From positions 65,138 to 129,137 of the forward strand of contig JABHWM010000005.1 of the NCBI GenBank assembly GCA_018657765.1: 64,000 bases of DNA, in the 5' to 3' direction. Positions 1,879 to 60,874 of the stretch are shown here, piece after piece. The notes beneath the pieces are model-generated. The model ran no database searches and was not told the DNA's origin. It saw nothing but the letters and a program-made list of their open reading frames with translations. This stretch comes from Minisyncoccota bacterium. GTDB taxonomy: Bacteria > Patescibacteriota > Microgenomatia > UBA1400 > PJMF01. Made by a program: the position numbers and the translations under genes. Each line of letters begins with the position of its first letter. The stretch's first letter is position 1.

Positions 1879-3678
1879 ATGGGCTACAATGAGCAGGTGC
1901 AAAAACTCAAACAGTGGTCAGTTTTATCTTTTTTATTGTTGATATTTTTTGCTGCTTCTTGGTCTTTATTGATAACTTCCAAGTTTTTTAGAGTTCATGA
2001 TTTTACTCACGCAGGTAGAATCTCTGAAATGGCTCAAGCACTTCAAGATGGTCATTTCCCAGTTAGATGGACAGAGAACTTTGGATATGGGTATGGTATG
2101 CCATTATTTGAGTTTTATGGTCCTTTACCTTTCTATATAGGTGCAGTTGTTTTTATACTTTTTGGTAATGTAATTTGGAGTATAAAATTTCTATATCTGT
2201 TATCTAACTTAGGAACGCTTCTCGGCGGATATTTTCTTGGTAAAAAGTTGTTTGGCAGAGTGGGTGGTTTATTGTTGTCAGCTTTCTTGACTTTGGCTCC
2301 TTATAGAGCAATGAATCTTTTTGCTAGAGGGGCTCTTAATGAAGTCTGGGGTATTATGTTTTTACCTTGGATATTGCTTGGTTTATTACAGATTTTTCAT
2401 CAACAGAAAAGTGGTTGGAAAACTTTCTTTTTTTCTTTGGTAGGTTTGTTTTTATCTCACAACATTACTACCATGATTTTTTTACCAATACTAATCATTT
2501 TTGCTTTGGGTTATGGAGGCTTAATGTTTTGGCAGCAAGCACCTGAATTTTTTAGGAAAGGAAGATTTAGAGCTCGCAATGTTCTGAGAATTATTTGGCA
2601 AATGTTTACGACTGGTGTTTTAGCTATTACTGCATCTAGTTTTTATTTAGTCCCTGCTTTTTTAGAAAAGAGCTTCACCCAAGTTGAAAAAATAATTTTA
2701 ACTCCATATTTTGATTATCATTTACACTTTTTATATATTAGACAGTTTTTTACTCCCAATTGGGGATATGGGGGAAGTGGCTGGGGTACAGAAGACGGTA
2801 TTTCTTTTTTCTTAGGTTGGGGACAGTTGTTAGCAGTTTTTTCTTTATTAGCTCTTTGGTTGTATCATTTTTTCCGTAAAATAATGAAAAAAGATGTAGA
2901 GAAAGTTCTTTCTAATAAAGTATTTTACTTAACATTTTTATTTGGAAGTATTTTTCTTTTAAGTAGTTTGATGAGTTTATTAAAAACACAGTTTATTTGG
3001 GATCAGATTTCTCTTTTTAAATTTATTCAATTTCCATGGAGATGGATGAGTATCTCGATTTTGTTTTTATCGATCTTACTGGCTAGCAGAGTATGGTTAT
3101 TTACAAATATAGTTACTAGATCTTGGACTGCTGGTATTTGTATAGTCATAACTGTTTTTAGTTCTGCTATATATTTTCAACCAGAAAAATATCTGGATGA
3201 TGCTAATGATTTTTATTACACAGATAAAATGAATATTCGTAAAAACTTAAGTCAAATTCTTCCTGATTATATTTCTACTGATATGAAAGAAAATCCTACA
3301 ATAATTCCTGACTCATTAATTCTTAATCAAGATTTATTAGCAGACGAATCAGTAGAGATTATTGCAGATAGAGTTCATGAAAAACTTATTAGAACTTCTT
3401 TTACAGAAACAACCAATCTAGAGTTTTCAGTAGCAACTTATCCAGGCTGGAGAGCAGAGATCGATAATCAGTGGTGGAATAAAAACAAAGGAGAAAATGG
3501 AAATATCATGATTGAAATCCCTTCAGGAGATCATCTGGTAAGTCTTCGTTTTGAAAGCACGCCTGTTAGATATTGGTCAGATTTAACTAGCTTTTTTTCT
3601 TGGATTATTTTTATATCTTTTAGTTTTCCAACAGTATCTAAAAAAATATTAAAAAAGAAAAAATTTAAAAATCTATGA
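1879..3678 (+). CDS. YfhO/PTPS-related-type integral membrane protein, probable GT-C glycosyltransferase (family B, copy 1)
   Basis: 599 aa, many hydrophobic helices. It shares three blocks with ORFs 9632..11353 and 29685..31385: an N-terminal loop HAGRISEMAQALQDGHFPVRWTENFGYGYGMPLFEFYGP, a mid FIQFPWRW block, and a C-terminal YPGWRAEIDN block. Confidence 0.6.
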   Translation: MGYNEQVQKLKQWSVLSFLLLIFFAASWSLLITSKFFRVHDFTHAGRISEMAQALQDGHFPVRWTENFGYGYGMPLFEFYGPLPFYIGAVVFILFGNVIWSIKFLYLLSNLGTLLGGYFLGKKLFGRVGGLLLSAFLTLAPYRAMNLFARGALNEVWGIMFLPWILLGLLQIFHQQKSGWKTFFFSLVGLFLSHNITTMIFLPILIIFALGYGGLMFWQQAPEFFRKGRFRARNVLRIIWQMFTTGVLAITASSFYLVPAFLEKSFTQVEKIILTPYFDYHLHFLYIRQFFTPNWGYGGSGWGTEDGISFFLGWGQLLAVFSLLALWLYHFFRKIMKKDVEKVLSNKVFYLTFLFGSIFLLSSLMSLLKTQFIWDQISLFKFIQFPWRWMSISILFLSILLASRVWLFTNIVTRSWTAGICIVITVFSSAIYFQPEKYLDDANDFYYTDKMNIRKNLSQILPDYISTDMKENPTIIPDSLILNQDLLADESVEIIADRVHEKLIRTSFTETTNLEFSVATYPGWRAEIDNQWWNKNKGENGNIMIEIPSGDHLVSLRFESTPVRYWSDLTSFFSWIIFISFSFPTVSKKILKKKKFKNL

Positions 3679-5180
3679 TTAATTCAACTGCTGTTGATAC
3701 AACTGACGAACTAGAAGAGTTAATGGATGATGATATCTCTGAGATAAAAGAGAAATCAGTTTCAGGTGTTGTTTCTTATTTTTTAAGAACAGCCTTTATG
3801 CAAGGCATTGGGTTAGTAGCAATTATTATATTGAGTGCTTTCCTTTCTCCTAGCGATTTTGGTATTTATGGATTTGTAACCCAGATCATTGGTTTACTGA
3901 TTTTCTTTTCTGATGTAGGTCTTGCTGCGGCCTTAGTTCAACAAAAGAAAAATCCAGATAATGAAGAATATAAAGTAATATTTACTTTACAGTGGATTTT
4001 ATCTTTATTAATCGTTGGTGTGATTTTATTATTAATTTGGACTGGTTTTATTCAACAAAAAGTAGGAATAGCTGGTGTCTGGGTATTATTGAGTTTAGCT
4101 GTTTCTTTTCCTTTGGCTACTTTAAAAACTGTTTCATCTATTAAATTAGAGAGGAAACTTCTTTTTCAAAAACTTGTTGTACCTCAGATTTTTGAACAAA
4201 TTATTTTTTATAGTTTATTAATAGCTCTAGCTTGGAAAGGAATGGGAGTATTGTCTTATGCTTATGCCATTATTGCTAGATCTATAGTTGGAGTGATAGT
4301 AATGTGGATTATTGAGCCATGGAAAAAGATTGGTTTTTTATGGAATACCAAAATTCTTAAATCATTATTAAATTTTGGGTTAAAGTTTCAATTTAATGAT
4401 TTTTTAGCAAGAATTAAGGATCAGCTTTTTTATCTAATCTTGGGAATATTTTTGCCTTTAGATCAATTTGGCTATATTCAATGGGCAAAAAATTGGTCTA
4501 TGTATCCATATAACCTAACAGTTCAGAATGTAATGGCTATTACTTTTCCAACTTACTCTAGATTACAGCACAGGCTGGATATCTTAAAAAGAGCTATAGA
4601 AAAATCTTTATTTTTCATTTCATTAGCCATTTTTCCTATTTTAGTAGGAATGAGCATCTTCATCTGGCCACTTACTCAAGTTTTTGAAAAATATAATAAA
4701 TGGGAACCAGCCATTTTTAGTTTTATTTTCTTTGCGCTTAGTATTGGTTGGGCAGCTATCTCTACTCCTTTGGTAAATACTCTGAATGCTATTGGTCATA
4801 TTAATCAAACTCTGAAATTAATGGGGATGTGGACAGTTCTGACTTGGGTTTTGACTCCTGTTTTTATCTGGAAGTTTGGTTTTAATGGTGTTGCACTATC
4901 TGCTTTTATTATTTCTTTCACCTCATTGTTATCTATCAGGATGGTAAAGAAGCATATTCCCGTTGTAATTATTCCTCAGATTAAGAGTGCTTTATTGGCT
5001 GCTATTTTAATGGCTATTGTTGGTTATCTAGGTATAAATTACTGGGCTAGAGACATCTATAGATTATTACTAGGAGTTGTTATTACTAGTGGAGTATATG
5101 GATTATCAATTACTTTACTTGATGGTAAAAAGATATTTGTTGAGATAAAAAGTTTGATTAATAGACCTAAAAAAAAGTAA
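3675..5180 (+). CDS. Wzx-like polysaccharide/oligosaccharide flippase (MOP superfamily)
   Basis: 501 aa, roughly 12-14 hydrophobic helices. N-terminal block VSYFLRTAFMQGIGLVAIIILSAFLSPSDFGIYGFV is typical of the polysaccharide biosynthesis protein family. The ATGA overlap with the upstream gene suggests translational coupling. Confidence 0.7.
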   Translation: MINSTAVDTTDELEELMDDDISEIKEKSVSGVVSYFLRTAFMQGIGLVAIIILSAFLSPSDFGIYGFVTQIIGLLIFFSDVGLAAALVQQKKNPDNEEYKVIFTLQWILSLLIVGVILLLIWTGFIQQKVGIAGVWVLLSLAVSFPLATLKTVSSIKLERKLLFQKLVVPQIFEQIIFYSLLIALAWKGMGVLSYAYAIIARSIVGVIVMWIIEPWKKIGFLWNTKILKSLLNFGLKFQFNDFLARIKDQLFYLILGIFLPLDQFGYIQWAKNWSMYPYNLTVQNVMAITFPTYSRLQHRLDILKRAIEKSLFFISLAIFPILVGMSIFIWPLTQVFEKYNKWEPAIFSFIFFALSIGWAAISTPLVNTLNAIGHINQTLKLMGMWTVLTWVLTPVFIWKFGFNGVALSAFIISFTSLLSIRMVKKHIPVVIIPQIKSALLAAILMAIVGYLGINYWARDIYRLLLGVVITSGVYGLSITLLDGKKIFVEIKSLINRPKKK

Positions 5181-5184
5181 GGGC

Positions 5185-6540
5185 ATGAGTAGACAAATGA
5201 ATAAAAAAATTTTAATTTTTCTGTTATTTGTTATTGGTGGCTTTTTCTTTAGAGTATCTAATTATTATCTTTTTCCTGTTTTTGGAGAAACTTCAGATGA
5301 AAGTGCTTGGACTCTTCTGGGTTCTAGTATTTTACAAGAAAAAGTTCCTGCTTCCTGGTCTTATTTTCAGGCATACGATAATTACGTATATAAAACAGGA
5401 GTTTATGATGCTCCTATAGTTAGGCCTGTTTTTGATCATCCACCGTTATTTTCCTTCTTCCCTGGGTTAGCACACACCTTGAGAGCTAACTGGATTGAGT
5501 CTCCTTCTGCTAAGGTAATTCGTTTGCCAATGGTAATTATTGGAGCAATTAATGTTGGTATTTTTTGGTTAGTAGCTAAAAAGTTTTTTAAAGAAAGAAA
5601 GTGGGCTGCTATTACAACAATTCTTTTTATGACTATTCCAGAGATTGTATTTGGGAGTAGGTTGGTAGTAGCAGAGAATTTAATTGTAACTTGGATTTTA
5701 TTGGCTTTATTGGCAATTCTTTATGAAAAAAAGAAGTGGAGTTTATCTTTATTGTTTTGGGTTAGTGTATTTTCTATTTTGACTAAAATTTCTGGAATAG
5801 TAGTTCCTGTCTCTATTTGTGCTTTAGCGGTTTTGCAAAAAGAAAAAAAATGGTTTAAAGTTGGTTTTTTTGGAGCTGTTACTGGAGTTGCAGTGTTTGC
5901 ACTGTATGGAGCATTTTATAACTGGGAGTTATTTTTGTCTGTCTTACAAGCTCAATCTACCAGAGAATTAGGTCTTGCAACCTTTCAAAACAGGTTTTTT
6001 ATACATCCAACACTAGTTCATCATCTGTTTTTTGATGGTTGGAAAATACTTGGTCTTTTTGCAACATTTTTTATTTTACAAAAGACTCAAAAGAAGTATA
6101 GACTTTTGCAGTTTTTTTCTTTGATAAATATTTTATTTATTATTTCTACAGCAGGAGAAACAACTTTCCATGGTTGGTATGATTTTGTGTTATGGCCTAG
6201 TTTTGTATTAGCTATAGGGTCTTTGTTTAAAGAGATATATGAAAAGAAGCTTTATTTACTTTCAGGATTAGTTTGGATTCTTCTCTTGCCATTATTAAGA
6301 ATGGTTAGTGTTTTTGGTGATTACAATTTATCTTTGTGGGGAGTAAGAGGAGCTGTTAGTCTTGGATTTACTCCTTTGTTTTTTGAGTCTATATCTTTCA
6401 AAAAAACTAGTCAAAGGTTTTTAGTTTTATTTTTTGGATTGTTAATAATCTTAAATATTTTTGTTGTTTTTTCTATTACTCATACTGGATACTGGAATCA
6501 AGCTGAGTTCTTTTCATCTAATATGCCGAAGGTAAGGTAG
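5185..6540 (+). CDS. PMT/ArnT-like (GT39-type) integral membrane glycosyltransferase, singleton
   Basis: 451 aa multi-pass protein. It has an acidic first-loop motif (GETSDESAW) and a VFDHPPLF block resembling the DVHPPL block of protein O-mannosyltransferases. Confidence 0.5.
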   Translation: MSRQMNKKILIFLLFVIGGFFFRVSNYYLFPVFGETSDESAWTLLGSSILQEKVPASWSYFQAYDNYVYKTGVYDAPIVRPVFDHPPLFSFFPGLAHTLRANWIESPSAKVIRLPMVIIGAINVGIFWLVAKKFFKERKWAAITTILFMTIPEIVFGSRLVVAENLIVTWILLALLAILYEKKKWSLSLLFWVSVFSILTKISGIVVPVSICALAVLQKEKKWFKVGFFGAVTGVAVFALYGAFYNWELFLSVLQAQSTRELGLATFQNRFFIHPTLVHHLFFDGWKILGLFATFFILQKTQKKYRLLQFFSLINILFIISTAGETTFHGWYDFVLWPSFVLAIGSLFKEIYEKKLYLLSGLVWILLLPLLRMVSVFGDYNLSLWGVRGAVSLGFTPLFFESISFKKTSQRFLVLFFGLLIILNIFVVFSITHTGYWNQAEFFSSNMPKVR

Positions 6541-7859: not shown

Positions 7860-9623
7860 ATGTCTATTTTAAAAAAGTTTTTATTTTTAGCAAATAATTT
7901 CATTAACTCAGATTTTTTTAAATTAATTATTATCTTATTAATTGCTTTATTTTTAAGAACTTTCCGTTTGTCTTTTTCTCCACCCAGATTAACTCACGAT
8001 GAGATGAGTATTGGATATAATGCTTATTCTATTTTAAAAACTGGAAAAGATGAGTGGGGGCGCAGCTTTCCCCTAGATTTTGAAGCTTTTGGAGATCACA
8101 AGCTTCCTGGTTATATATATTCTTTAGTGCCGTTCCTGAGTTTTCTGCCGATGAGCATGGTTTCAATTAAAATCCCATCAATAATCGCTGGCCTCTCTAC
8201 TATTTTAGCGATGTTTTATTTGACAAAAACTATCACAAAAAATAGACATTTAAGTTTTTTAACCGCTTTTCTACTGGCCATTAGTCCTTGGCCAATTCAT
8301 ATTTCTAGAATGGCTTTGGAGTCTAATCTAGCTTTAGCTTTATTTTCTTGGGGTATTTATTTTTTGATAAAAACATTTGATTTGAATTCTGTAAAAGATG
8401 CTTCAAAAAACTTGGTTAAAGACAATAGAGCGGCTATTTTAGCTGGATTGTTTTTAGCTTTTAGCACATATTTTTATATAGCTTATAGATTGATTGTTAT
8501 TTTGGTTTTATTTTTAACACTAGTTTTAACATTCAAATATAAGCTCAGTAAAAAAAGATTACTAGCTTTATTTAGTGTTTTTATTTTAGTTTTATTACCT
8601 CTCATCGGACAGCTATTCGGTAAATCAGGAACAGCTAGATTTACCCAAGTATCTATTTTTTCTAATGATGGGGTAGAGGCAACTATTTTAGAGCAACATA
8701 ATTTTTGTTTTCTTTCACAACCAAAATTTCTACCTAGAATTTGTAGAGTTATTTACAACAAACCATTTTTCTATATAAAAACTTTTAGTAAAAATTATTT
8801 ATCATTCTTATTACCTACTTTCCTTTTTATAGAAGGAGATCAATTGGAGTATCTCAATGACCCTAGTTTTGCTGAGTTTTATATGTTTTTAATTCCTTTT
8901 TACCTAATGGGAATTAATTATTGGGTTAAGAAAAAAGGCTATAAAGCAGATATTATTAAATATAGTTTTTTGATAGCTCCCATACCATCTGCTTTAGTGG
9001 GAGATCCGCAAATAGTTAGAGGCAGTGCTTTACTGCTTTTTGTGACTTTGTTTTCTGCTACCGGTATTTATGAAGTTTTCAGATTAATTAAAAAGAAGTT
9101 TTATAAGTATTCCTTTGTAGTATTTACATTATTGTTGACATTAATATCTTTAGTTAGATTTTTTATAAGCTATAGTTATATATATCCTGGAAAATACGAA
9201 AACTCTTTTTATCAGTTATCAGACAAAATTGCTTTATTTATGTTGGAAAAAGAATCTGATTATGATTTAATTTATATAGATAAAAATTTTCCAGATGCTC
9301 ATATTTTAATTTCTTTTTATAATCAAATAGATCCTAGTTGGTATCAAGATAATATCGTTAGACCTGTGAGTCAAGATGGTTTTGGTTTTTCACATCCTAC
9401 TAAACTTGGTAAATATGAGTTTGGTGATGAGCTATTGGATGGCTTTATTTGTAATGAAGAAGATGATAAAAAAGTTCTTTATGTAAGTAATCATTTGGAG
9501 ATACCTGCTGATTGGGTATTTAAAGATTTCTCTAATGTTCATACACAAGTACAGGTTTATGATATTGATCAAACAAGAGATAAATTAAAAAAAGCCAAGT
9601 TGTTTAGAAATATTTGTCATTAA
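7860..9623 (+). CDS. ArnT/PMT-like (GT39/GT83-type) GT-C membrane glycosyltransferase, family A copy 1
   Basis: The track ORF starts at TTG 7812; I prefer ATG 7860 (MSILKKFLF...). Family A blocks present: THDEMSIGYNAYSILKTGKDEWGRSFPLDFEAFGDHKLPGYIY and SPWPIHISRMALESNLA. Many TM helices plus a soluble C-terminal domain. Confidence 0.65.
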   Translation: MSILKKFLFLANNFINSDFFKLIIILLIALFLRTFRLSFSPPRLTHDEMSIGYNAYSILKTGKDEWGRSFPLDFEAFGDHKLPGYIYSLVPFLSFLPMSMVSIKIPSIIAGLSTILAMFYLTKTITKNRHLSFLTAFLLAISPWPIHISRMALESNLALALFSWGIYFLIKTFDLNSVKDASKNLVKDNRAAILAGLFLAFSTYFYIAYRLIVILVLFLTLVLTFKYKLSKKRLLALFSVFILVLLPLIGQLFGKSGTARFTQVSIFSNDGVEATILEQHNFCFLSQPKFLPRICRVIYNKPFFYIKTFSKNYLSFLLPTFLFIEGDQLEYLNDPSFAEFYMFLIPFYLMGINYWVKKKGYKADIIKYSFLIAPIPSALVGDPQIVRGSALLLFVTLFSATGIYEVFRLIKKKFYKYSFVVFTLLLTLISLVRFFISYSYIYPGKYENSFYQLSDKIALFMLEKESDYDLIYIDKNFPDAHILISFYNQIDPSWYQDNIVRPVSQDGFGFSHPTKLGKYEFGDELLDGFICNEEDDKKVLYVSNHLEIPADWVFKDFSNVHTQVQVYDIDQTRDKLKKAKLFRNICH

Positions 9624-9631: not shown

Positions 9632-11353
9632 ATGAAAACATTTTTAAAATTATTAAAAAATGAGCAAAAGAAAAAACTCTTTTTTGCAAGTTTATTTATT
9701 ATTATTTTTTCTTTATTTATATCTAGGAATCTTTTTACTGATTCTTTGCCTCGTACAGATGATTTAGAGTTACATGGCGCTCGTTTGGCTAATTACTATT
9801 TAGCAATTAAACAAAATCAATTTCCTCCGTATTGGGGGCCTAATTTGAACTATGGTTTTGGTTACCCTATTTTTCTTTTTTCTTATCAATTTCCATATAT
9901 AACGGCTGTTATTTTTTATTTTTTAGGATTGAGTATTGAGATTAGTCTTAATTTAACAATGACTATTTTTATTATTAGTGGTGGTTTAGGAATGTTCTAT
10001 CTTTCTTATATAAAAAATAAAAATATTTTATTAGCTATTACTTCAGCACTAATTTATCAAACAACTCCATATATGTTGTTAAATATTTTTGTAAGAGGTG
10101 CTCTTGGAGAAATTTCTTTTTTAGGAATTTTACCCTGGATTTTTATTTTTATAGAGCTTAGAAAAAAATCTAATCAGTGGTGGTATAAAATTTTTAGTAT
10201 TTTTATATTTTCTAGTTTAATTTTATCTCATCCAGTATCTTTAGTAGTGGCTGGGCCGCTTATTTTAATTTGGTTGTTTTTTGATGGTTTCTATTTTGAA
10301 TTAAAAAATTGGAAAAAAAATAATTATGCAATTAAATTTTTATTTAATGGTTTTTTGAGTTTAGGAATAACAGCTTTTTATTGGCTGCCTTTTATTTTTG
10401 AGAAAAAATATATTGTTATTGATGGTCACAACATAATTAATAACTTTTCTAATAGATTTTTACCAGTCAAACAATTACTATTTTCTAGATGGGGTCATGG
10501 TGGAGCTGATATAAGTATTCCTAATGATGTTTTTCCAGCTACTCTTGGTTTATCTATTTTAGTCATTTTATTTTATTCATTAATAAAATTAATTAAATTC
10601 TTGAAAAAAGAGAATTCAATAAAAAAATACAAGGATGTTATTTTTTGGTTAGTAGTTTTCTTTTTATCAGTATTTTTAATGTTACCAATCTCTAAAAAAG
10701 TTTGGAATTTTTCAAAAGTTCTTCCATATCTTCAATATCCATGGCGTTTATTATGGGTAAGCACTTTTTCTGGAATAATGATTTTAAATTCATGGAAAAA
10801 AATAAATAAATTTATTTTGTATATTATATTGGTAATAGTTTTACATCATTCTATTTTTTACACCAATCCAGTTGGTTATATTAGTAATTCAAATCATGAT
10901 TGGTTGGAGTATTTTGGAACATCTACATCAGATAATGAGCTGAAAGCAAAATGGTTTGATGAGCATAAAAACATAGGTATTACCGAGAAAATTGTATTAA
11001 ACCCTCCAAGTTCAAATCAAAAAATAGATATTAGTTCATGGAACGGCTCAGAAATGGTTTATGAAATAGAAACTGATAGTTCTACTAATGTTTTACAAAA
11101 AACTATGTATTTCCCTGGATGGGAGGCTGTTGTTGATGGTGAGAAAGTTGATATTAACTATATGAATGAAGAATTCCCAGGAAGAATTAATTTCTCTTTA
11201 GAAAAAGGAAAACATAATATAAAAGTTAACTTTACTAATAATACTCCAGCTAGAAAAACAGGTCTTTATTTAACATTGGTTAGTATAATTACTTATATTG
11301 TAGTAATTTTATTCTCTTTATTTAAAACTATAAAAAACAATAAAAATCAATGA
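9632..11353 (+). CDS. YfhO/PTPS-related-type GT-C membrane protein (family B, copy 2)
   Basis: The track ORF starts at TTG 9614; ATG 9632 lies just after the upstream stop. Blocks present: HGARLANYYLAIKQNQFPPYWGPNLNYGFGYPIFLF, LQYPWRLLW, and C-terminal YFPGWEAVVDGEKV...KGKHNIKVNF. Confidence 0.6.
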   Translation: MKTFLKLLKNEQKKKLFFASLFIIIFSLFISRNLFTDSLPRTDDLELHGARLANYYLAIKQNQFPPYWGPNLNYGFGYPIFLFSYQFPYITAVIFYFLGLSIEISLNLTMTIFIISGGLGMFYLSYIKNKNILLAITSALIYQTTPYMLLNIFVRGALGEISFLGILPWIFIFIELRKKSNQWWYKIFSIFIFSSLILSHPVSLVVAGPLILIWLFFDGFYFELKNWKKNNYAIKFLFNGFLSLGITAFYWLPFIFEKKYIVIDGHNIINNFSNRFLPVKQLLFSRWGHGGADISIPNDVFPATLGLSILVILFYSLIKLIKFLKKENSIKKYKDVIFWLVVFFLSVFLMLPISKKVWNFSKVLPYLQYPWRLLWVSTFSGIMILNSWKKINKFILYIILVIVLHHSIFYTNPVGYISNSNHDWLEYFGTSTSDNELKAKWFDEHKNIGITEKIVLNPPSSNQKIDISSWNGSEMVYEIETDSSTNVLQKTMYFPGWEAVVDGEKVDINYMNEEFPGRINFSLEKGKHNIKVNFTNNTPARKTGLYLTLVSIITYIVVILFSLFKTIKNNKNQ

Positions 11354-50856: not shown

Positions 50857-50860
50857 TTAA

Positions 50861-52497: not shown

Positions 52498-53579
52498 AAG
52501 TATTATTTGATCATCAGGTTTTTTCTTGGCAAAAGACAGGAGGTGTCTCTAGATATTTTACTGAATTAATGACAAAGATGATTCAGAAAAAAATAAACAT
52601 TTTTTTAAGTGGTATTTTTACTGAAAATATATACATTAAAAAAATAAATAATTCATTAAAAAAAGTAAGTAATTATTATATTCCTGGAAAAACAATTTTA
52701 ATAAAAAAAATAAATAAGATCTCTACAATAAATACTCTTAATAAAAACAACTTTGATATTATTCATCCAACAGGATATGACCCTTATGTGTTTAAGTATT
52801 TAAAAAAATCAAAATTAGTAATAACAATTCATGACATGATTTATGAAAAGTTTCCAGAATACTTTCCGAAAAGTGGGGCTGAAAATAAAAAGAAAATGAT
52901 TTTATCTGCTGATGCAATAATAGCCGTTTCAAATAAAACCAAAGAAGACATTATTAGTTTGTTAAAAGTAAACCCAAAAAATATATACGTTGTACATCAA
53001 GGAGGGTTGATGGGTGTAAAAAACGAAGTAAAAAATAGTGAAAACCCCTTAAAATATTTTTTGTATGTGGGGGATAGAGATAAATATAAAAATTTTTCTC
53101 TATTGATTGAGGAGATTAAATATATTTTAAAAAAGAATAAAAAAATAAAGATTCTTTGTGTTGGAGGTGGAAAATTTAAAACCAAAGAACTTGATCTAAT
53201 GGGAGAATTTAAAAATAGATTTATTCAATTAAACTTAACTGACAAGGAACTTATCTGGGCATATAGGCATGCCTTAGCCTTAATTATTACATCTTTATAC
53301 GAAGGCTTTGGTATACCTGTAATTGAAGCAATGTCACTAGAATGTCCAGTAATACTAAATAAAACATCATCTTTACCAGAAGTTGCCGGAGATGCTGGCC
53401 TTTATTATGATTCAAACAAAAAGAATGATTTAAAAAATAAAATTAATTATCTTTTAAATAACCCTAAACAAAAAAAGGAATTAATTAGAAAAGGGTATCT
53501 TAGAGCAAAGAAGTTCTCATGGGAAAAGTGTGTAAAAGAAACTATCTCTGTTTACAAAAAAGTTTTGAAAGAGAAATAG
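52494..53579 (+). CDS. GT-B fold glycosyltransferase (GT4)
   Basis: Blocks FLYVGDRDKYKNF and IITSLYEGFGIPVIEAMSLECPVILNKTSSLPEVAGD. Confidence 0.8.
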   Translation: MKVLFDHQVFSWQKTGGVSRYFTELMTKMIQKKINIFLSGIFTENIYIKKINNSLKKVSNYYIPGKTILIKKINKISTINTLNKNNFDIIHPTGYDPYVFKYLKKSKLVITIHDMIYEKFPEYFPKSGAENKKKMILSADAIIAVSNKTKEDIISLLKVNPKNIYVVHQGGLMGVKNEVKNSENPLKYFLYVGDRDKYKNFSLLIEEIKYILKKNKKIKILCVGGGKFKTKELDLMGEFKNRFIQLNLTDKELIWAYRHALALIITSLYEGFGIPVIEAMSLECPVILNKTSSLPEVAGDAGLYYDSNKKNDLKNKINYLLNNPKQKKELIRKGYLRAKKFSWEKCVKETISVYKKVLKEK

Positions 53580-53581
53580 TA

Positions 53582-54475
53582 ATGAATAAAACAGAACCTT
53601 TTTCTACACCGATCATTTTTATATTTTTTAACCGTTCAGAACATATTGTAGAGACACTATCTGTCTTGCAAAAACTAAAACCATCCAAACTATACCTAGT
53701 AGCTGATGGCCCACGAAATAATAAAGAGAGAAAACAAATTCAAAAGGTAAGAAAACTAGTAGAAAAAAATATTATCTGGAAAACAAAAGTTACTAAAATA
53801 TATGCTCATAAAAACATGGGCCTCAGAAACAGGATAGTCTCTGGACTAAATAATGTCTTTGAAAAAGAAGAGACAGCAATAATAATGGAAGATGACTGTA
53901 TTGCAGATCAATCTTTTTTCAAATTCTGTGATGTTTTACTAAAAAAATATAAAAATAATAAAAAAATTGGAAGTATTACTGGAGATAACTTTTTATTCAA
54001 TCAAGAAAAACAAAAGAATAGTTACTATTTTTCTCAGTATCCTCACTCATGGGGTTGGGCTACCTGGAAAAGAGCTTGGAATTTATTTGATAACGAAATG
54101 AGTGACTGGAAAACTGTTTGGAGTAAAAAACAATTTACTTCACCTCTAGTAAAATGGTATTGGTATCTTGTTTTTACACTTGTTACTAAATTAAAAATAG
54201 ATTCTTGGGCCTATCGTTGGACATATAGTTGCTTCAAAAATAATTTATTGACTATTATTCCAAGAGAAAATCTGGTACAAAATAAGGGTGTTGGTAAAAC
54301 AGCTACTAATACAAAGCTAAAGAACTCTGTTCTAGATATGAAGGCATATGAGCTTTCTTTTCCTCTAAAACATCCCGCCCGTGTTCTACAAAATAAAAAT
54401 TATGATGCTCTGACTGAAAAAAACTTATATATAAAGTTTAGAACCATTGTTGGAGCCATACTGAAATTTATATAA
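53582..54475 (+). CDS. GT-A fold glycosyltransferase of the HlpA-like/GnT-I-like type (copy 2)
   Basis: The track ORF starts at 53519 inside the upstream gene; ATG 53582 follows the upstream stop. Blocks PIIFIFFNRSEHIVETL, LYLVADGPRN, IIMEDDCIADQSFF and YPHSWGWATWKRAWNLFD. Confidence 0.55.
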   Translation: MNKTEPFSTPIIFIFFNRSEHIVETLSVLQKLKPSKLYLVADGPRNNKERKQIQKVRKLVEKNIIWKTKVTKIYAHKNMGLRNRIVSGLNNVFEKEETAIIMEDDCIADQSFFKFCDVLLKKYKNNKKIGSITGDNFLFNQEKQKNSYYFSQYPHSWGWATWKRAWNLFDNEMSDWKTVWSKKQFTSPLVKWYWYLVFTLVTKLKIDSWAYRWTYSCFKNNLLTIIPRENLVQNKGVGKTATNTKLKNSVLDMKAYELSFPLKHPARVLQNKNYDALTEKNLYIKFRTIVGAILKFI

Positions 54476-55218
54476 TGAATACTGGTCTCACATCAAAATC
54501 ATTTTGGTTAAAATACTGGCAAACTAAAGATCTTGTAATTCCTATCAAAAAAAACTATCCATTCTCAGATCTTTTTCAAAAATATTGTTCACCAAGACAA
54601 CTAAAAACTTTCTTGGAAATTGGTGGTTTTCCTGGATATTTTGCTATTTATCTAAAAAAACATCTTGGATATGAAGTTAGTTTGCTAGACTATGTTGTTC
54701 AACGAAAAACTATTCATAAACTATTAAAAAAGAATGGCTTAAAGAAAAAAGATCTAATAGTTCATGAAAAAGATTTTTTTAATTTTTCTACTAAGAAAAA
54801 ATATGATGTAGTATTTTCTTCTGGATTTATAGAACACTTTGAAAATTATGATGAAATAATAAAAAAGCATTGGCAACTTACTAACAAAGGTGGTGTAATG
54901 CTAATTATCTTACCCAATCTACTAGGCCTCAATGGTCACTTTCAGTTAATGTTTGACCCAGATAATCTCAATATCCATAACTTATCTTCAATGAATATTA
55001 AAAGTTTAAAAAAGATAATTAAAAATTTAAATCCCAGTAAATTTGAAGTAAGATACTACGGAGGATTAAGTATTTGGCTAGAGAATCTCAATCAAAAATC
55101 TCTTTTTCAAAAACTACTTGTTTATGGAGTATATGCTATTGGAAAAATATTTAAATTATTTAGAATAAATAGTAAATTTACTTCACCATTTATTTATCTT
55201 GTTGCTCACAAAAAATGA
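54475..55218 (+). CDS. class I SAM-dependent methyltransferase
   Basis: Blocks FLEIGGFPGYFAIYL, VSLLDYV and YDVVFSSGFIEHFENYDEI...GGVMLIILPN. Confidence 0.6.
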   Translation: MNTGLTSKSFWLKYWQTKDLVIPIKKNYPFSDLFQKYCSPRQLKTFLEIGGFPGYFAIYLKKHLGYEVSLLDYVVQRKTIHKLLKKNGLKKKDLIVHEKDFFNFSTKKKYDVVFSSGFIEHFENYDEIIKKHWQLTNKGGVMLIILPNLLGLNGHFQLMFDPDNLNIHNLSSMNIKSLKKIIKNLNPSKFEVRYYGGLSIWLENLNQKSLFQKLLVYGVYAIGKIFKLFRINSKFTSPFIYLVAHKK

Positions 55219-56363
55219 AAAAACCTTCCATACTTATGATCGGCACAGCAGACACTATGGGTGGGGCAGCCCGTCAAAGTTGGATCCTGGGTCATGAATT
55301 AAAATCTAAAGGATATAAAGTTAGATGGTTAGTTCGCACCAAAAAATCAAATAAGAGCTATGTTCATGGTTTTTTTAATCACTGGCAAACAAACTTTGCT
55401 CATTTGAGAAATTTTTTATTATCTAATGACCTTGATTCTGGATTAGAAAAAGAAATTTTTGATCACTCTTGGTACAAACAAGCAGATATTATTCATTTAC
55501 AAAACCTACATGGAAACTACTTTAGACTAAAATCTATTATCAGGATTTCTAAAGAAAAAAAACTAATTTGGACTCTACATGACATGTGGGCTATTACTGG
55601 AAAATCACCATATATCATCACTAACAAAGAGAATAATTGGCTTTATCCACCAATGTTGATAGATACTCATAAAAAATTAAAAATAAAAAAACAAAAAATC
55701 TATAAACAACTAAAAAACATCCAGCTAATAACACCATCAGTTTGGCTAAATAATTTAGTTAAAAAATCGTCTCTCAAAAAGTTTGCTAACACTACTATTT
55801 ACAACGGAGTAGATACTAATAAATATAAACCAAAAAAAATAAATCAACAAAAAATAATTATAACAACAGTAATTAGCGGTGGTTTTCAAAGTCCATTTAA
55901 AGGTGGGGAATTAATCAAAAATCTAATTCCATTAATAAAAAATCTAGATTTAGAACTTCATTTTGTTGGAGGAAAGAAAAAGCATAGAGATAGCAATATT
56001 ATTTATCATGGAAAATTAGATCAAAAACAACTCATAAATCAGTATCAACAATCAACTGCTATTTTAGTTCCGTCACTAGCAGATAATTGCCCAATGGTAA
56101 TTATTGAATCATTATCTTGTGGAATACCAGTTATTGCCACCAAAGTAGGAGGAATTCCAGAGCTTATTACTCATAAAAAAAATGGTTATTTAGCAGATCC
56201 AAATCTAAATAGTCTTTTAAATGGAATAAATTGGCTTATGAAATTAAATAATAAAGAAATCAACAAAATTAAAAAAAATAATCGTCAGAAAACTCTTAAG
56301 AATTTCTCACTTTCAACAATGGTCAATAAATACGAAAAACTCTATCATTCCCTCTCTTCATAA
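55215..56363 (+). CDS. GT-B fold glycosyltransferase (GT4)
   Basis: Blocks ILMIGTADTMGGAARQ and ILVPSLADNCPMVIIESLSCGIPVIATKVGGIPELI. Confidence 0.7.
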   Translation: MKKPSILMIGTADTMGGAARQSWILGHELKSKGYKVRWLVRTKKSNKSYVHGFFNHWQTNFAHLRNFLLSNDLDSGLEKEIFDHSWYKQADIIHLQNLHGNYFRLKSIIRISKEKKLIWTLHDMWAITGKSPYIITNKENNWLYPPMLIDTHKKLKIKKQKIYKQLKNIQLITPSVWLNNLVKKSSLKKFANTTIYNGVDTNKYKPKKINQQKIIITTVISGGFQSPFKGGELIKNLIPLIKNLDLELHFVGGKKKHRDSNIIYHGKLDQKQLINQYQQSTAILVPSLADNCPMVIIESLSCGIPVIATKVGGIPELITHKKNGYLADPNLNSLLNGINWLMKLNNKEINKIKKNNRQKTLKNFSLSTMVNKYEKLYHSLSS

Positions 56364-56393: not shown

Positions 56394-57656
56394 ATGAAAC
56401 TTCTCAAATCTACCGGCATAAGACAATCTGTCTTTACTGTAATTGGAAACCTAATGGGCACTGGTATAGCTGCAATAGCTGTAATTTTACTTATTCGTAT
56501 TCTAGGGCCAGAGAAATATGCAGAGTTTAGTGTTGGATTTGCTATTGTCTTGATGCTCACTAGACTTAATGATCTGGGTCTCAACCCAACAATCGTAAAG
56601 TTTGCTTCAGAGTTAAAAACAAACTCAGAAAAAAACTTTATTTATAACTATGCCTTGAAATACAAGCTCTTAGTTTCCACGATAATAATATTACTAGGAG
56701 TTTTCTTCTATAAACCAATAGCAGAGATATTGAAACTAAATGAGCCACTTATTATTTTACTGAGTTTTTCTTTCGGTCTAGCCACTGTTTATTACGAATA
56801 TTTATTATCAATTTTCCAGTCACTCCATTCTTTTGGAAAAACAGTTCTTATTAACACTATCCAGGCTATAGTAAAACTACTAGCTGTTGGCACATTGTTT
56901 TTTATTGGTTCACAAAATATTCTCCCAGCATATTTTTGGTATATCTTTGCCACTTTTATCCCAGTTTTCTTTGCAAGAAAGCTACTTCCAGATTGGTTCA
57001 AAATAGATTTTAATAGAAGTAATAAGAAACTTCAGAAAAAAATTCTTTCTTTAGCTAGTCATGCCAGCATTGGTCTTATTGCCGCAGGAATAATAGAAAA
57101 CATTGATATTCTTTTTGTCCAAAAATACCTCACAGCCTACGAAACAGGTCTTTATGGAGGAATCTCTAGAATTGCTTTATTCTTTGCCATTGTGGCTTAT
57201 TCACTGGGAAATGTTCTAAATGCTAGAGCCTCAAAATATAAATCTAAAGAACATATTAGTGCTTTTCTAAAAAAATCTTTTATTTTATCTGCGCTGATTA
57301 TCCTCAGCTTTGCTTTGTTTGTACCACTAGCTAACCCTTTGATTTTTTACTCTATAGGAGCAGAATTTCTTTCTGGTAATTTGATCTTGATTATCCTCAC
57401 AGCAGGCTCTTTCTTTGCTCTAGCAGCCATTCCTTTTATTGCTATTTTCTTTGCCTTAGAAGCAAACTGGTATTTTTCTGTTAGTGGGATATTACAACTA
57501 ATTATTGTTCTGACAGGTAACTTTATGTTTGTGCCAGAGCATGGCCTGATAGCTGCTGCTTGGACTCGCTTTGCTACCAGATTATTTTTACTGTTATTTA
57601 CTGTTATTAGTAGCATTGTGGTATACAAGAAACAATATGGCAAAGTGGCTGCGTAA
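56394..57656 (+). CDS. Wzx-like polysaccharide flippase (MOP superfamily), second copy
   Basis: 420 aa, about 12 helices. N-terminal block SVFTVIGNLMGTGIAAIAVILLIRILGPEKYAEFSVGFAI. Confidence 0.65.
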   Translation: MKLLKSTGIRQSVFTVIGNLMGTGIAAIAVILLIRILGPEKYAEFSVGFAIVLMLTRLNDLGLNPTIVKFASELKTNSEKNFIYNYALKYKLLVSTIIILLGVFFYKPIAEILKLNEPLIILLSFSFGLATVYYEYLLSIFQSLHSFGKTVLINTIQAIVKLLAVGTLFFIGSQNILPAYFWYIFATFIPVFFARKLLPDWFKIDFNRSNKKLQKKILSLASHASIGLIAAGIIENIDILFVQKYLTAYETGLYGGISRIALFFAIVAYSLGNVLNARASKYKSKEHISAFLKKSFILSALIILSFALFVPLANPLIFYSIGAEFLSGNLILIILTAGSFFALAAIPFIAIFFALEANWYFSVSGILQLIIVLTGNFMFVPEHGLIAAAWTRFATRLFLLLFTVISSIVVYKKQYGKVAA

Positions 57657-59190
57657 AACATTCCAATTTATAGATAAATATTTTTTATTCCTGATTTTAG
57701 GAATTTATCTTTTATTTACTCTTCCAGCTCTTCTAGATTCCAATCATTTTCTATATAACCTAGAGCCATATCCAGATGGTCTTTTGTATGCCCTTAGTGG
57801 TAAGAACTTTTGGTTGGGGAGGGGACTAAAACTAATCTTTCCTTTTGGAGAACTTACTAATTGGGTACCACCAGTTTATTCATTGGCCTTAGGTCTTGGA
57901 GCTTTTATTTTTTCTATCCCTGCTTCGTTTTATGTAACAAATGTAATTATTAATTTACTCACTATCACTGTTTTTTTCTGGATCTTAAATACAACCACAA
58001 AAAAATCTACTACCAGAGACATTGGCATGATTGCTTTGTTATCTCACTTTATTTTTTTCTGGTTACCCAGTAGCCCTTTGACAGAAAATATATCTTTGTT
58101 ATTTTTTGTCACAATGATCGCTAGTTTTTTTATAAAAGACTGGAAGAAATATTTACTACTTAGTTTTAGTATCTTGGGATTATTATTTACTAGATACTCT
58201 ATCTTTCCTTTAATTATTGGCGGGATAATAGTGCCATTATTTATTTTCTTCAAAAAACTTTCTCCTAAGAAAAAAATCATTATTAGCTTATTAAGCTTAG
58301 GATTATTCATTTTGGCTTTGTGGTTTTTATCTCTAAAAAATATTTATTTACTAGGTTTTTCTAAAGTAATACTCAGTAATACTAGCCCTTGGTTTGGAAC
58401 CAGATTTATTACTTCTCATTTAATGATTTATCTCAAAATGATTTTATTTTCCAAAGGATTGTTTTTATGGATGAATATTGGTCTTACTAATTTTATTTTT
58501 TTTGGACTTTTCCTAACTAGTTTATTTGTCTTGTTCAAAAAAAGAATGTGGCAAAAATTCTGGATCTTATCTATTTTATTTATTGCTCAACTTCCATTAC
58601 AACTAGTTTTTTATGTAGCTGATGCTCGTTACCTTATTTACAGCATTCCTTTAATTATTTTGGGAGTTAGCTGGCTGATAGATGCTTTACCAAAAAAGAA
58701 AAAGCTTCTTATTGCTCTCACTATTCTTGGAATAATTCTCCAACTTTTTTTACAAAGAACTTTTGTTAGACAAGTACTGGCAGATAACCTGTTAGGAAGA
58801 TCAACCGCTTGGCAATACGAAGCAGTAGAACACTTCAATTCCGTGTTGAAAGATGAAGATCTATTAGTTACAGCTCTGCCACCTTTCTTGGTCGATATCT
58901 ACCAAACATCTGAATATAGAGTAGCTCCTCTTTCTTACAATCAGGAGTTTATGAACAAAAAACAATATCTCTGGGGGAATGATCTAAATTATGAACAGCT
59001 TACTGATACTTATACTCAATGGTTGGTAGAAGGGAAAAAAGTTTATATTTCCAATGCCTACATTACTCATCATAAAGATGTCATTAAAGACTATGAAACC
59101 ATAAAAGAAGTATTTTCATTAGAACTAGTCAGTGAAGGTTGTAGTAATGCCTGTGATATATATAAGTTGGAGTTACTGAAAAATGAATAA
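57637..59190 (+). CDS. large multi-pass membrane protein, possible GT-C glycosyltransferase or polymerase (singleton)
   Basis: The track ORF starts at 57571, deep inside the flippase gene; the in-frame ATG 57637 (MAKWLRKTF...) is more plausible. More than 10 hydrophobic helices and a soluble C-terminal domain. No diagnostic motif recognised. Confidence 0.4.
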   Translation: MAKWLRKTFQFIDKYFLFLILGIYLLFTLPALLDSNHFLYNLEPYPDGLLYALSGKNFWLGRGLKLIFPFGELTNWVPPVYSLALGLGAFIFSIPASFYVTNVIINLLTITVFFWILNTTTKKSTTRDIGMIALLSHFIFFWLPSSPLTENISLLFFVTMIASFFIKDWKKYLLLSFSILGLLFTRYSIFPLIIGGIIVPLFIFFKKLSPKKKIIISLLSLGLFILALWFLSLKNIYLLGFSKVILSNTSPWFGTRFITSHLMIYLKMILFSKGLFLWMNIGLTNFIFFGLFLTSLFVLFKKRMWQKFWILSILFIAQLPLQLVFYVADARYLIYSIPLIILGVSWLIDALPKKKKLLIALTILGIILQLFLQRTFVRQVLADNLLGRSTAWQYEAVEHFNSVLKDEDLLVTALPPFLVDIYQTSEYRVAPLSYNQEFMNKKQYLWGNDLNYEQLTDTYTQWLVEGKKVYISNAYITHHKDVIKDYETIKEVFSLELVSEGCSNACDIYKLELLKNE

Positions 59191-60874
59191 ACAGATATTT
59201 GAAAAATTACAAAAAACTATCCAAAGTAAAATCCCACTTTTTATAAAAATAACTGCTTTTATATTTTCTTTGACTTTAATTATCTTAGAAAGTAACTATC
59301 AATTAATAAAAACTACTAGATTAGGTGTTGATTTTGTTTCTTGGGGCTTATCTGCCATGGCTCCAATATTTGGGATTGGATTTCCATATATTAACTACTG
59401 GGGTATAAATCCACCTGGTTTACTTCTTTTCACGGCTTTGTGGGGACTATTAGCTGGCTCATCAATTCAATCATTTCATGTTTTATATGTTGTTCTATTA
59501 GCAAGCATTGTTTTTTTGACCTGGAAAATATTAAGAAGATTTTTTAGTTCATTAGAGAGTTTGGTTCTTTTTATAATATTTAATATTTTCTTTTTATCTA
59601 GTACTACTCAAAGCATGTTTTTTCCATCAGAAATAAATGGCTTAGTTTTTGCTTTGATCGGCCTTTATTTTGCTTTGAAAAAGAAAGTCTCTAAAAAAGA
59701 TATTTTTTGGGCTAGTTTCTTTTTTATTCTAGCGGGACAAATGAAAGAAGTTTTTGCTTTTACAGGTTTAACACTTTTTCCTCATTTATTAAAAGCTATT
59801 CACCTTGGAAAAAAAGACACTAAAAAGATTATTCTTTATGCTTCTTTAGGAATATTAACTAGTTTATTAGTCTTAGTAGGCTATTTAGCCATTAATTATT
59901 CTCTTGGAGAATATAGAGATATCTTGCAATATAAATCTGGACAATTTTCTTTAAGTGATTCTGGTAGATTTGAAAAGAATTTATTTCACAGTATTCATTA
60001 CCCAAAAGAAAGATTCATTTATCCCAAATATGAGATGGCAGTACTTTTATTTACTAGTTTTATTTCTTTTTTGATTTACTTGAGCCTAACTATTAAAAGT
60101 AAAAAAGCCTCCAAAAAAAACAACATTGCTGTGAGTTTTAAATTACCCTCACAAACAATAAATTACTCAATTCTTTTATTTTTTTGGATTGGCTCAACAA
60201 TGGGGTATATGGCTCAAGGTAGGTATGGATATAAATATGAAATTCCAGTAATTTTACCCATGATCTTAATTATTTCTTTGTCTATAAAAATTATTTTTAG
60301 ATCAATATTACAGTTTCTTAATATCAAACTTTCTAGAAATCTATATTTATTTATTAGCGCTATTTTATTTACTATCTTTTTACTTCCCAAGAAATTCTTT
60401 TTTATAGAACATTACCAAGATATTTCTAGTTATAGTTTTCAAACTCATAGAGATAAATGGCTCAACCTAGAAAATACAGGATCTATTGGGATGGAGACAC
60501 ATATAAAAAATAATACTAAAAGTTCAGATTGTATAACCTCTATTTATGGTTGGTCTGTGGGTAGTCAATATTATTATAGTCAACGAAAATCTTGCTCTAA
60601 ATATTTCTTGGTTAATATATTACCTGGAGGTAAATATAAAGACTACCAAAATGAGTTAATTAACAATCCGCCCAAAGCAATTGTTTATATTACTGGTAGT
60701 ACAGATATGAATATAGAAGAATTTGAACAAACAGCTTTTGATTTTTCTACAGTCCTAGAAAACTGCTATAAGCAAGACAATCAATTTTCATCGCTGTATT
60801 GGAGTAATTTCAATAAAGAAGAGTTGTCAGAGTGTTTGCTGTCTGGTATTCCAGAAAATAAAACCACTAATTAG
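59183..60874 (+). CDS. large multi-pass membrane protein, possible GT-C glycosyltransferase (singleton)
   Basis: 563 aa. It overlaps the upstream gene by 8 nt. The first loop has YWGINPPGLLLF, weakly like the HPPL block of PMT_2-type enzymes. The soluble C-terminal domain contains Cys residues. Confidence 0.4.
   Translation: MNKQIFEKLQKTIQSKIPLFIKITAFIFSLTLIILESNYQLIKTTRLGVDFVSWGLSAMAPIFGIGFPYINYWGINPPGLLLFTALWGLLAGSSIQSFHVLYVVLLASIVFLTWKILRRFFSSLESLVLFIIFNIFFLSSTTQSMFFPSEINGLVFALIGLYFALKKKVSKKDIFWASFFFILAGQMKEVFAFTGLTLFPHLLKAIHLGKKDTKKIILYASLGILTSLLVLVGYLAINYSLGEYRDILQYKSGQFSLSDSGRFEKNLFHSIHYPKERFIYPKYEMAVLLFTSFISFLIYLSLTIKSKKASKKNNIAVSFKLPSQTINYSILLFFWIGSTMGYMAQGRYGYKYEIPVILPMILIISLSIKIIFRSILQFLNIKLSRNLYLFISAILFTIFLLPKKFFFIEHYQDISSYSFQTHRDKWLNLENTGSIGMETHIKNNTKSSDCITSIYGWSVGSQYYYSQRKSCSKYFLVNILPGGKYKDYQNELINNPPKAIVYITGSTDMNIEEFEQTAFDFSTVLENCYKQDNQFSSLYWSNFNKEELSECLLSGIPENKTTN

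Follow-up and report, generated by a model that had tools for sequence, protein, structure and literature searches.

The 64,000-nt window analysed here (positions 65,138 to 129,137 of contig JABHWM010000005.1, assembly GCA_018657765.1) carries 14 open reading frames (ORFs) that are, by sequence comparison and two structure models and with evidence of varying strength, genuine glycosyltransferases of the GT-C fold. We read the window as the greater part of a conserved locus for a cell-envelope glycopolymer, at least 65-83 kb long, in an uncultured member of the Pacebacteria/Microgenomates, which belong to the candidate phyla radiation (CPR/Patescibacteria). The GT-Cs would use polyprenyl-phosphate-linked sugars, and the whole would follow the logic of the streptococcal GacI/J/K/L system and of mycobacterial arabinogalactan (AG) and lipoarabinomannan (LAM) assembly with the GT-C step multiplied. 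For this reading, taken jointly with the GT-C identity, the donor type, and the mechanism proposed below, we estimate a probability of roughly 0.65. The kind of system is already known; new are its scale, its lineage, its genomic economy, and several unannotated GT-C families. The parent contig measures 183 kb and the array runs past the window on both sides, which gives approximately 17 GT-C genes in approximately 83 kb.

All 14 ORFs are present at the starts listed in an earlier sequence-only reading of this DNA; they lie on the plus strand, with stop and start codons that overlap in several cases (Table 1). In case of 7860, 9632, 36372, and 57637 (ORFs are named by their start positions), the program-made ORF list begins at an upstream TTG (7812, 9614, 36360, and 57571, respectively); the public gene calls back the ATG starts used here for those four ORFs (587, 573, 517 aa). 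The public call for 5185 is 4 aa shorter (447 aa). Together the ORFs sum to 22.7 kb, approximately 38% of their 59-kb span, and they account for 14 of the 50 ORFs of at least 150 aa; such clustering of membrane ORFs is far from chance. Each shows 7 to 13 hydrophobic segments in a Kyte-Doolittle scan, as expected from the earlier description of all of them as multi-pass hydrophobic proteins. That list of multi-pass ORFs holds for the 14, with the omission of 3675-5180 and 56394-57656, which are Wzx flippases and not GT-Cs, and of the continuation of the array outside the window.

By all-against-all BLASTP the 14 ORFs do not form a single family; six or more sequence groups can be told apart, namely paralog group A (six members), paralog group B (three members), and five singletons, and direct above-threshold Pfam support exists for only four of them (1879 and 24397 with PMT_2, 9632 with PTPS_related, and 59183 with GT87). 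GT-C models are matched under the curated cut-off by 7860 (PMT), 26237 (PMT_2), and 31388 (Mannosyl_trans2/PIG-V), and 19640 shows a weak YphA match alone. The Pfam scan gave no direct match for 5185, 12369, 17921, 29685, 36372, and 57637, and the NCBIfam scan returned no useful names for any of the 14. In the Pfam search suggested with the GT-C proposal, PMT_2, PTPS_related, and GT87 were found above cut-off in four ORFs only, PMT and Mannosyl_trans2 remained under it, and YfhO was not matched.

What ties in the ORFs without a Pfam match is paralogy, Pfam matches among their homologues, or profile-profile comparison (hhalign, local mode). The latter links group A to the families of 5185 (98.4%) and 57637 (97.5%), and the 57637 family to those of 5185 (98.4%) and 36372 (93.2%), with the Wzx proteins as negative controls remaining below 1%. 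Single-sequence hhalign carried no information for 31388 and 59183, as in this setting not even the pair of Wzx proteins recognised one another. Since 5185 and 57637 each follow a Wzx gene, both were considered as Wzy polymerases. This assignment was rejected, as homologues of 5185 carry PMT_2/PMT and the 57637 family is linked to that of 5185 at 98.4%.

AlphaFold (AF2) models were made for 36372 and 12369. Both are helical bundles, and their high-probability Foldseek matches in the PDB are only GT-C enzymes, in line with the similarity to ArnT, Pmt, and PglB that had been anticipated. In case of 36372 (predicted local distance difference test, pLDDT, 80; predicted TM-score, pTM, 0.83), the top 23 matches are all GT-C, including STT3 (1.9e-4) and ArnT (2.7e-4) with TM-scores of 0.44-0.49, as well as DPY19, AglB, AftB, ALG12, and Pmt4. 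In case of 12369, the top 20 are likewise all GT-C, among them AglB (3.5e-7), STT3, ArnT (3.6e-5), PglB (3.6e-5), Pmt4, DPY19, AftD, and AftA. Transporter folds were rejected, as transporters reach a probability of approximately 0.1 and a TM-score of approximately 0.1 against both models. Profile hidden Markov model and structure comparisons had been chosen beforehand as the means to refute the GT-C proposal; together with profile-profile comparison and paralogy they place the ORFs in GT-C families and none among transporters. Sequence searches of PDB chains with the profiles A1 (group A), A2, and A6 found only ArnT (E=0.11, A1) and otherwise irrelevant matches or nothing.

Group A comprises 7860, 12369, 17921, 19640, 24397, and 26237, which are 24-30% identical with BLASTP E values of 1e-18 to 1e-45. 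Among 293 homologues from 80 genomes, R23 (287/287), E38 (287/287), and R383 (290/290) are invariant over the aligned positions, position 37 is D or E in 287/287 (273 D, 14 E), and E148 is kept in 289 of the 293. This near-invariance in the alignment points to active enzymes under purifying selection. Group B consists of 1879, 9632, and 29685 (BLASTP E values of 1e-20 to 1e-65); D44, H48, and R51 of 1879, situated after the first transmembrane segment (TM1), are invariant in the alignment. Paralogs of both groups are only 23-33% identical and therefore go back to old duplications.

The singletons differ widely in the size of their families. For 5185, 63 homologues were found, most of them with PF13231/PF02366 (PMT_2/PMT) and several named GT39. 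The 31388 family contains 6,368 representatives at E<=1e-3; in a sample of 35, 11 match Mannosyl_trans2/PIG-V (best 4.4e-10), four PMT_2, and one ALG10. In five metagenomic proteins of 930-1030 aa (P0158, P0169, P0184, P0222, and P0248) the 31388-type domain forms the C-terminal approximately 400 aa, and these may represent fused GT-C pairs. The 85 homologues of 57637 mostly lack a Pfam match, except for two with PMT_2 and one with Glyco_transf_22, and share an invariant N-L-E-P-Y-P-D.

The predicted orientation agrees with a GT-C layout. In all 13 proteins for which the scan found TM1, the short N-terminal tail before it contains two to six K/R, which by the positive-inside rule places the N-terminus inside and the first loop outside. 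In 17921 TM1 was missed by the scan, the layout in the sequence being the same as in the other 13. The acidic pair that the sequence-only reading had assigned to the first external loop of most ORFs is thus predicted to face outward; a strict DE, DD, or EE pair occurs in nine of the 14 (5185, 7860, 9632, 12369, 17921, 19640, 24397, 26237, and 36372). The remaining five have single or spaced acids, which are family-conserved in 1879 (HD), 29685 (HDGE), 31388 (FDG), and 57637 (ExxxD); in 59183 the motif is VD. The soluble C-terminal domain described for most ORFs was recovered as well: in ten, more than 110 aa follow the last transmembrane segment as a soluble tail, in two group B proteins the soluble domain precedes a terminal transmembrane segment, and 5185 and 31388 are without such a tail.

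Concerning known GT-C families, a regular-expression search did not find the WWDxG oligosaccharyltransferase motif in any of the 14, despite the fold similarity to STT3, PglB, and AglB. Pfam detected no MIR domain, with a best PMT score of 22.5 against a cut-off of 22.7 (7860), and no YfhO match for any ORF, group B matching PTPS_related and PMT_2 instead. Thus the 14 do not belong to the oligosaccharyltransferase, YfhO, or true PMT families. They do have the DE motif, which other GT-Cs share with PMT. In case of ArnT (GT83), the group A profile aligns to 5ezm with E=0.11 over 64 residues only; the fold match reaches E=3.6e-5, and an ArnC-like GT2 is encoded in the locus. GT87 membership applies to 59183 alone (29.8 bits, cut-off 25), and no above-threshold match to the Emb/Aft arabinosyltransferase families was found among the 14.

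These results bear on the possibility that protein glycosylation (PMT/GT39-like O-glycosylation) is the task of most of the GT-Cs, which would decorate S-layer proteins, pilins, or other surface proteins and not a wall polysaccharide. The Pfam names matched are those of protein mannosyltransferases (PMT, PMT_2), and the top structures for group A are AglB, STT3, and PglB. In Caldicellulosiruptor, a single GT39 enzyme is reportedly responsible for all protein glycosylation. CPR are enriched in surface proteins, pili, and sortase substrates (PMC6744442). However, neither WWDxG nor MIR was found as described above, ArnT-like transferases with non-protein acceptors also match PMT_2, and the genes are set among an LCP (LytR-CpsA-Psr) ligase, an ABC-2 exporter, Wzx flippases, and approximately 20 polymer-type GT2/GT4 genes. 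We therefore regard protein glycosylation as the main function of the array as unlikely.

Table 1. GT-C genes and other predicted features of the window; positions refer to the 64,000-nt window, and bits are scores of the named models.
Feature	Position	Strand	Evidence
LCP ligase candidate	635..1759	-	Pfam LytR_cpsA_psr 103.7 bits
GT-C group B	1879..3678	+	Pfam PMT_2 27.8 bits (cut-off 26.1); BLASTP 2e-31 to 9632, 3e-20 to 29685
Wzx-type flippase, between two GT-C genes	3675..5180	+	Pfam Polysacc_synt_3 153 bits
GT-C, GT39/PMT_2-like singleton, without C-terminal soluble domain	5185..6540	+	homologues; hhalign to group A 98.4%
GT-C group A	7860..9623	+	Pfam PMT 22.5 bits (cut-off 22.7); BLASTP to group A 1e-18 to 1e-44; DE47 motif
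GT-C group B	9632..11353	+	Pfam PTPS_related 42.6 bits (cut-off 26.4); BLASTP 3e-65 to 29685
Cytoplasmic GT2	11418..12326	+	Pfam Glycos_transf_2
GT-C group A, modelled representative	12369..14102	+	AF2 pLDDT 65.5, pTM 0.70
Four cytoplasmic glycosyltransferases (GT2, GT2, GT4, GT2)	14137..17924	+	Pfam; block kept between group A genes in relatives
GT-C group A	17921..19588	+	BLASTP 1e-21 to 1e-36 to group A; WDE motif
GT-C group A	19640..21283	+	BLASTP 3e-45 to 12369; EE35 motif
GT-C group A	24397..26145	+	Pfam PMT_2 35 bits (above cut-off); BLASTP to group A
GT-C group A	26237..27832	+	Pfam PMT_2 24 bits (under cut-off); BLASTP 6e-41 to 12369
Cytoplasmic GT2 and GT4	27859..29678	+	Pfam
GT-C group B	29685..31385	+	BLASTP 3e-65 to 9632; orthologue of a relative with weak GT-C_AftD match
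GT-C, PIG-V (GT76)-like singleton	31388..32614	+	Pfam Mannosyl_trans2 19.1 bits (cut-off 22.4)
NAD-dependent sugar-nucleotide epimerase/dehydratase	32660..33577	+	Pfam Epimerase 206.8 bits
GT2, candidate polyprenyl-phosphate-sugar synthase (PpgS/GacI/Dpm1-like)	33581..34276	+	NCBIfam PpgS 104 bits, AglJ, DPhHxTase
DUF2304 small membrane protein (GacJ/Rv3632-like)	34273..34611	+	Pfam DUF2304 52.5 bits (cut-off 25.5)
Cytoplasmic GT2	34633..35427	+	Pfam
GT2 with two C-terminal transmembrane segments, candidate polyprenyl-phosphate-sugar synthase (ArnC/PgfS/GtrB-like)	35428..36375	+	NCBIfam PgfS 256 bits, ArnC 153 bits; transmembrane segments at ~237, ~271
GT-C of a rare "dark" family	36372..37853	+	7 homologues found, no Pfam; invariant IDDG after TM1; hhalign 93.2% to 57637 family
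Epimerase and GT2	37878..39611	+	Pfam
ABC-2 permease and ATPase (Wzm/Wzt- or TagG/H-type polymer exporter)	39653..41697	+	Pfam ABC2_membrane 71.9 bits, ABC_tran 85.8 bits
Lower-GC block: methyltransferases, nucleotidyltransferases, GT2/GT4	41694..56363	+	Pfam; GC 0.23-0.29 vs ~0.31 elsewhere
Second Wzx-type flippase, directly upstream of two GT-C genes	56394..57656	+	Pfam Polysacc_synt 76.5 bits
GT-C singleton, Patescibacteria-restricted family	57637..59190	+	hhalign 98.4% to 5185 family, 97.5% to group A
GT-C, GT87 (MptA/MptB/PimE-type) singleton	59183..60874	+	Pfam GT87 29.8 bits (cut-off 25) and weak PMT_2

That the GT-Cs would be fed with polyprenyl-phosphate-linked sugars is suggested by their context. 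The sequence-only reading had supposed a few lipid-linked donors, and this is matched by three candidate synthases in or next to the locus: the PpgS/GacI-like GT2 33581 with its DUF2304 neighbour, the ArnC/PgfS-like GT2 35428, and a GT2-GtrA fusion encoded just outside the window. The start of the DUF2304 gene overlaps the stop codon of 33581, and by analogy to GacJ/Rv3632, for which a role as activator of the partner GT2 is described (10.1101/180810), its product is a candidate activator of this enzyme. In addition to the synthases, the window encodes approximately 20 cytoplasmic GT2/GT4 enzymes and several methyltransferases, nucleotidyltransferases, and epimerases.

In the mechanism we propose, the approximately 20 cytoplasmic GT-A/GT-B enzymes would build lipid-linked glycan chains, which the ABC-2 transporter would export. 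Two or three GT2 synthases (33581 with DUF2304, 35428, and the upstream GT2-GtrA fusion) would make polyprenyl-phosphate-monosaccharides, and flipping of these lipid-linked sugars to the outer face would fall to the two GacK-like Wzx proteins or to the GtrA domain. There, each GT-C would contribute one specific sugar or linkage, in the form of a side chain, a branch, or an extension, and the LCP enzyme would ligate the product to peptidoglycan.

Two precedents are close to this scheme. For the streptococcal group A carbohydrate (10.1101/180810), a GT2 and a DUF2304 protein make the polyprenyl-phosphate-sugar, flipping is the proposed task of a Wzx-family protein, and a GT-C adds the sugar to a polymer. 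Export of this polymer presumably proceeds through an ABC transporter, and its attachment to the wall presumably through LCP proteins. All these part types (GT2 with adjacent DUF2304, Wzx, GT-C, ABC polymer exporter, and LCP) are present here, their functions being assigned by analogy. The locus further shares with GacI/J/K/L (with GacD/E and LCP) and with the rhamnose-polysaccharide decoration systems of Lactobacillales the position of Wzx beside GT-C and the RmlB/RmlD-type genes nearby. Unlike GacI/J/K/L, with one or two GT-Cs, it contains 14 (approximately 17 with the flanks) from different, lineage-specific families, as well as two Wzx proteins and up to three lipid-sugar synthases in a CPR host, and no priming enzyme of the GacO/WecA type was found in the window.

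The second precedent is the assembly of lipomannan (LM), LAM, and AG in mycobacteria, where many GT-Cs are fed by few lipid-linked donors such as PPM (PMC3485146). The corresponding set of the Corynebacteriales (Emb, Aft, MptA/B/C, and PimE; DPA and PPM; Wzm/Wzt; Lcp1; PpgS/Rv3632/Rv3779) resembles the locus in this ratio of GT-Cs to donors, and a GT87 member, a PpgS-like GT2 with DUF2304, an ABC-2 exporter, and an LCP protein are found here, too. It differs in that no above-threshold Emb/Aft match exists here, most members belonging to PMT_2-like, PTPS_related, or unannotated families, and in that the genes form one array, whereas in mycobacteria those for AG/LM/LAM assembly are scattered over a 4.4-Mb genome.

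Similarities to the Gtr, CsbB-GtcA-YfhO, and ArnC-ArnT systems comprise the GtrB/ArnC-like GT2 with two transmembrane segments (35428), a GtrA-type domain, and GT-Cs with a periplasmic-type C-terminal domain. In contrast to these systems, no Pfam YfhO match was found, the ArnT sequence match reaches E=0.11 only, and the ratio of GT-C to synthase is approximately 5:1 instead of 1:1. The sequence-only reading had described the array as going beyond the classic Gtr and ArnT systems, which is appropriate for its scale but not for its principle, given the mycobacterial AG/LM/LAM and streptococcal GacI/J/K/L precedents.

The mycobacterial parallel also raises the possibility that the products are membrane-anchored lipoglycans, similar to phosphatidylinositol mannosides, LM/LAM, or glycosylated lipoteichoic acid, built on scavenged host lipids and not linked to the wall. 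The GT87 enzyme (MptA/MptB/PimE-type), the PIG-V-like enzymes, and the MptA_B-family gene upstream of the window are in favour of it, as GT87 and PIG-V-like families act on lipid-anchored mannans in mycobacteria (PMC3485146). Nevertheless, an LCP ligase heads the locus, which argues for attachment to peptidoglycan, genes of the LtaS or PimA/PimB type were not seen in the window, and only two to three of the approximately 17 GT-Cs belong to these families, so that lipoglycans appear rather improbable as the main products but may be made by a subset of the enzymes.

Named homologues retrieved with the families of 5185, 36372, and 57637 and with the group A profile belong to the Pacebacteria, Microgenomates, or Patescibacteria. 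A Firmicute origin, to which a GC content of ~30% and genes of Gram-positive type might point, was rejected on this ground. The group A profile, searched against 185,579 representative genomes, yielded 80 loci, all of the same three labels apart from doubtful titles of metagenome-assembled genomes (MAGs). Many third-party-annotation MAGs (L007, L013, L016, L018-L020, L022, and others) are titled "uncultured Pseudomonadales" or "Gammaproteobacteria" and bear Patescibacteria-type GT-C arrays with conserved gene order; probably these titles are placeholder or erroneous taxonomy. The best match to the window among the representative genomes is 65% identical, thus its species is absent among the matched genomes. 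The host genome probably measures approximately 1 Mb or less.

Five closer relatives share a common skeleton, consisting of group B, Wzx, a 5185-type gene, a variable stretch, group A, four cytoplasmic glycosyltransferases, and group A twice; in one of them, L010, no 5185-type ORF was detected in the skeleton. In Betzabe_MAG183 the homologous locus covers approximately 65 kb of a 652-kb contig with approximately 13 GT-Cs, and its gene content departs from the window downstream of the ABC transporter. A housekeeping arginyl-tRNA synthetase (ArgRS) gene is situated in the middle of the array (22606-24372, plus strand). An ArgRS-sized gap occurs at the matching position in Betzabe_MAG183, and in relative L006 at about 18920-21083; as this position is kept, the array either grew around ArgRS or is very old.

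GT-C counts in relatives refer to local loci, i.e., 10 kb on either side of a homologue. For 44 full-length loci of approximately 21.6 kb around group A homologues, the median is six GT-C-like ORFs and the maximum 11. The window contains approximately five per 21.6 kb, so its density is typical of the lineage and not special to this window. GT-C density far above that of well-studied bacteria is a lineage-wide trait of the Pacebacteria/Microgenomates. In the searchable literature no report of a GT-C expansion or of such arrays in CPR was found; Méheust et al. 2019 (PMC6744442) predicted membrane proteins for 14 of 35 Microgenomates-enriched families, and those families are mostly hypothetical.

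Many paralogs lie side by side and the sequence is a metagenome assembly, which could indicate that the array is largely redundant, be it through recent tandem duplication, decay of paralogs, or an error of assembly or binning, and has only a few functional enzymes. We consider this very improbable, as the paralogs are old by their 23-33% identity, all ORFs are intact, and the catalytic-type residues are essentially invariant in the 293 homologues. Furthermore, orthologues of 41-65% identity occur with their order kept in independent assemblies, and proteins of the window were recovered on at least 22 contigs from several samples, including one NCBI MAG.

Several points weigh against a glycopolymer locus with GT-Cs of the proposed function. 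The structure models cover two of the 14 ORFs, and the one for group A reaches a moderate pLDDT of 65.5. The case is weakest for group B, which has a weak profile link to group A (24%) and owes its GT-C status to the Pfam matches to PTPS_related and PMT_2. As the best structures for group A are oligosaccharyltransferases and the Pfam names are those of protein mannosyltransferases, protein acceptors are possible for some members. The window yielded no priming phosphoglycosyltransferase of the WecA/TagO or WbaP type, and the role of Wzx as a flippase for lipid-monophosphate-sugars is assigned by analogy only. Finally, the combinatorial function of the GT-Cs is what we infer.

For ORFs of the window with 150 aa or more, no match to Wzy_C, EpsG, or O-antigen ligase appeared, every multi-pass protein being a GT-C, a Wzx, an ABC-2, or a GT2 with transmembrane segments. 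The ABC ATPase of the window has no Wzt_C match; a weak one is present in the orthologue of a relative. In the upstream flank on the parent contig (L085, 11397-21125), genes for RmlB/RmlD-like enzymes, UDP-glucose dehydrogenase, GDP-mannose 4,6-dehydratase (457 bits), and a further epimerase, with TrmD interposed, suggest rhamnose, 6-deoxyhexose, and uronic-acid-derived sugars. They are followed by the GT2-GtrA fusion, a PMT_2 protein (41.6 bits), a GT2, and the MptA_B-family gene. The downstream flank contains a 518-aa ORF with weak PMT_2 similarity.

The block at 41694-56363 shows positive AT skew and encodes FkbM, Methyltransf_11/23/24, and a GT4-methyltransferase fusion (46366-48129). Its equivalent in Betzabe_MAG183 contains different genes (DegT aminotransferase, ATP-grasp), and we take the block as a possible serotype-like variable region in which sugars would be methylated or capped with methyl groups. 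Inside the array, 6719-7714 is the sole minus-strand gene of 150 aa or more; its 331-aa product has two predicted transmembrane segments and no Pfam, NCBIfam, or PADLOC match, and it is also present in the NCBI MAG GCA_018694315.1. The 1.3 kb upstream of ArgRS (21283-22606) contain only small ORFs (134 aa on the minus strand, 83 aa, and 76 aa) without family matches, which are called as genes in other assemblies. Rfam and tRNA scans of the window found nothing, including no Rfam match in this region. At the end of the array, 60891-62485 has the look of a small mobile insert: besides an ORF of 161 aa rich in lysine, it comprises an HNH endonuclease (61385-61786) whose tail is rich in K/R, and a pair of Gp49-like toxin and HTH antitoxin (61877-62485); PADLOC reported generic HNH and HTH matches at the locus end and nothing more.

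CPR/Patescibacteria presumably live on the surface of host cells, and most biosynthetic pathways have been lost from them, therefore the functions they retain are informative. A locus of at least 65-83 kb dominated by extracytoplasmic glycosyltransferases, in a lineage in which the arrays of relatives sit on contigs of only 570-650 kb, implies that the glycan coat is a major investment. It is tempting to speculate, albeit tentatively, that the Pacebacteria/Microgenomates independently evolved a mycobacteria-like strategy, in which most of a complex, strain-variable glycan would be built outside the membrane by a lineage-specific GT-C battery, some families of which are without annotated relatives. 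Approximately a tenth of an ultra-small genome would be devoted to it, and in these episymbionts the coat would be among the main factors that decide on attachment to the host or evasion of phages. The locus also widens the sequence space of the GT-C superfamily, which is hard to detect by sequence, by group A (293 homologues, 80 genomes) and the 36372 family (seven relatives). For the organisms themselves, the coat probably has a central part in recognising the host, keeping the envelope intact, or resisting phages.

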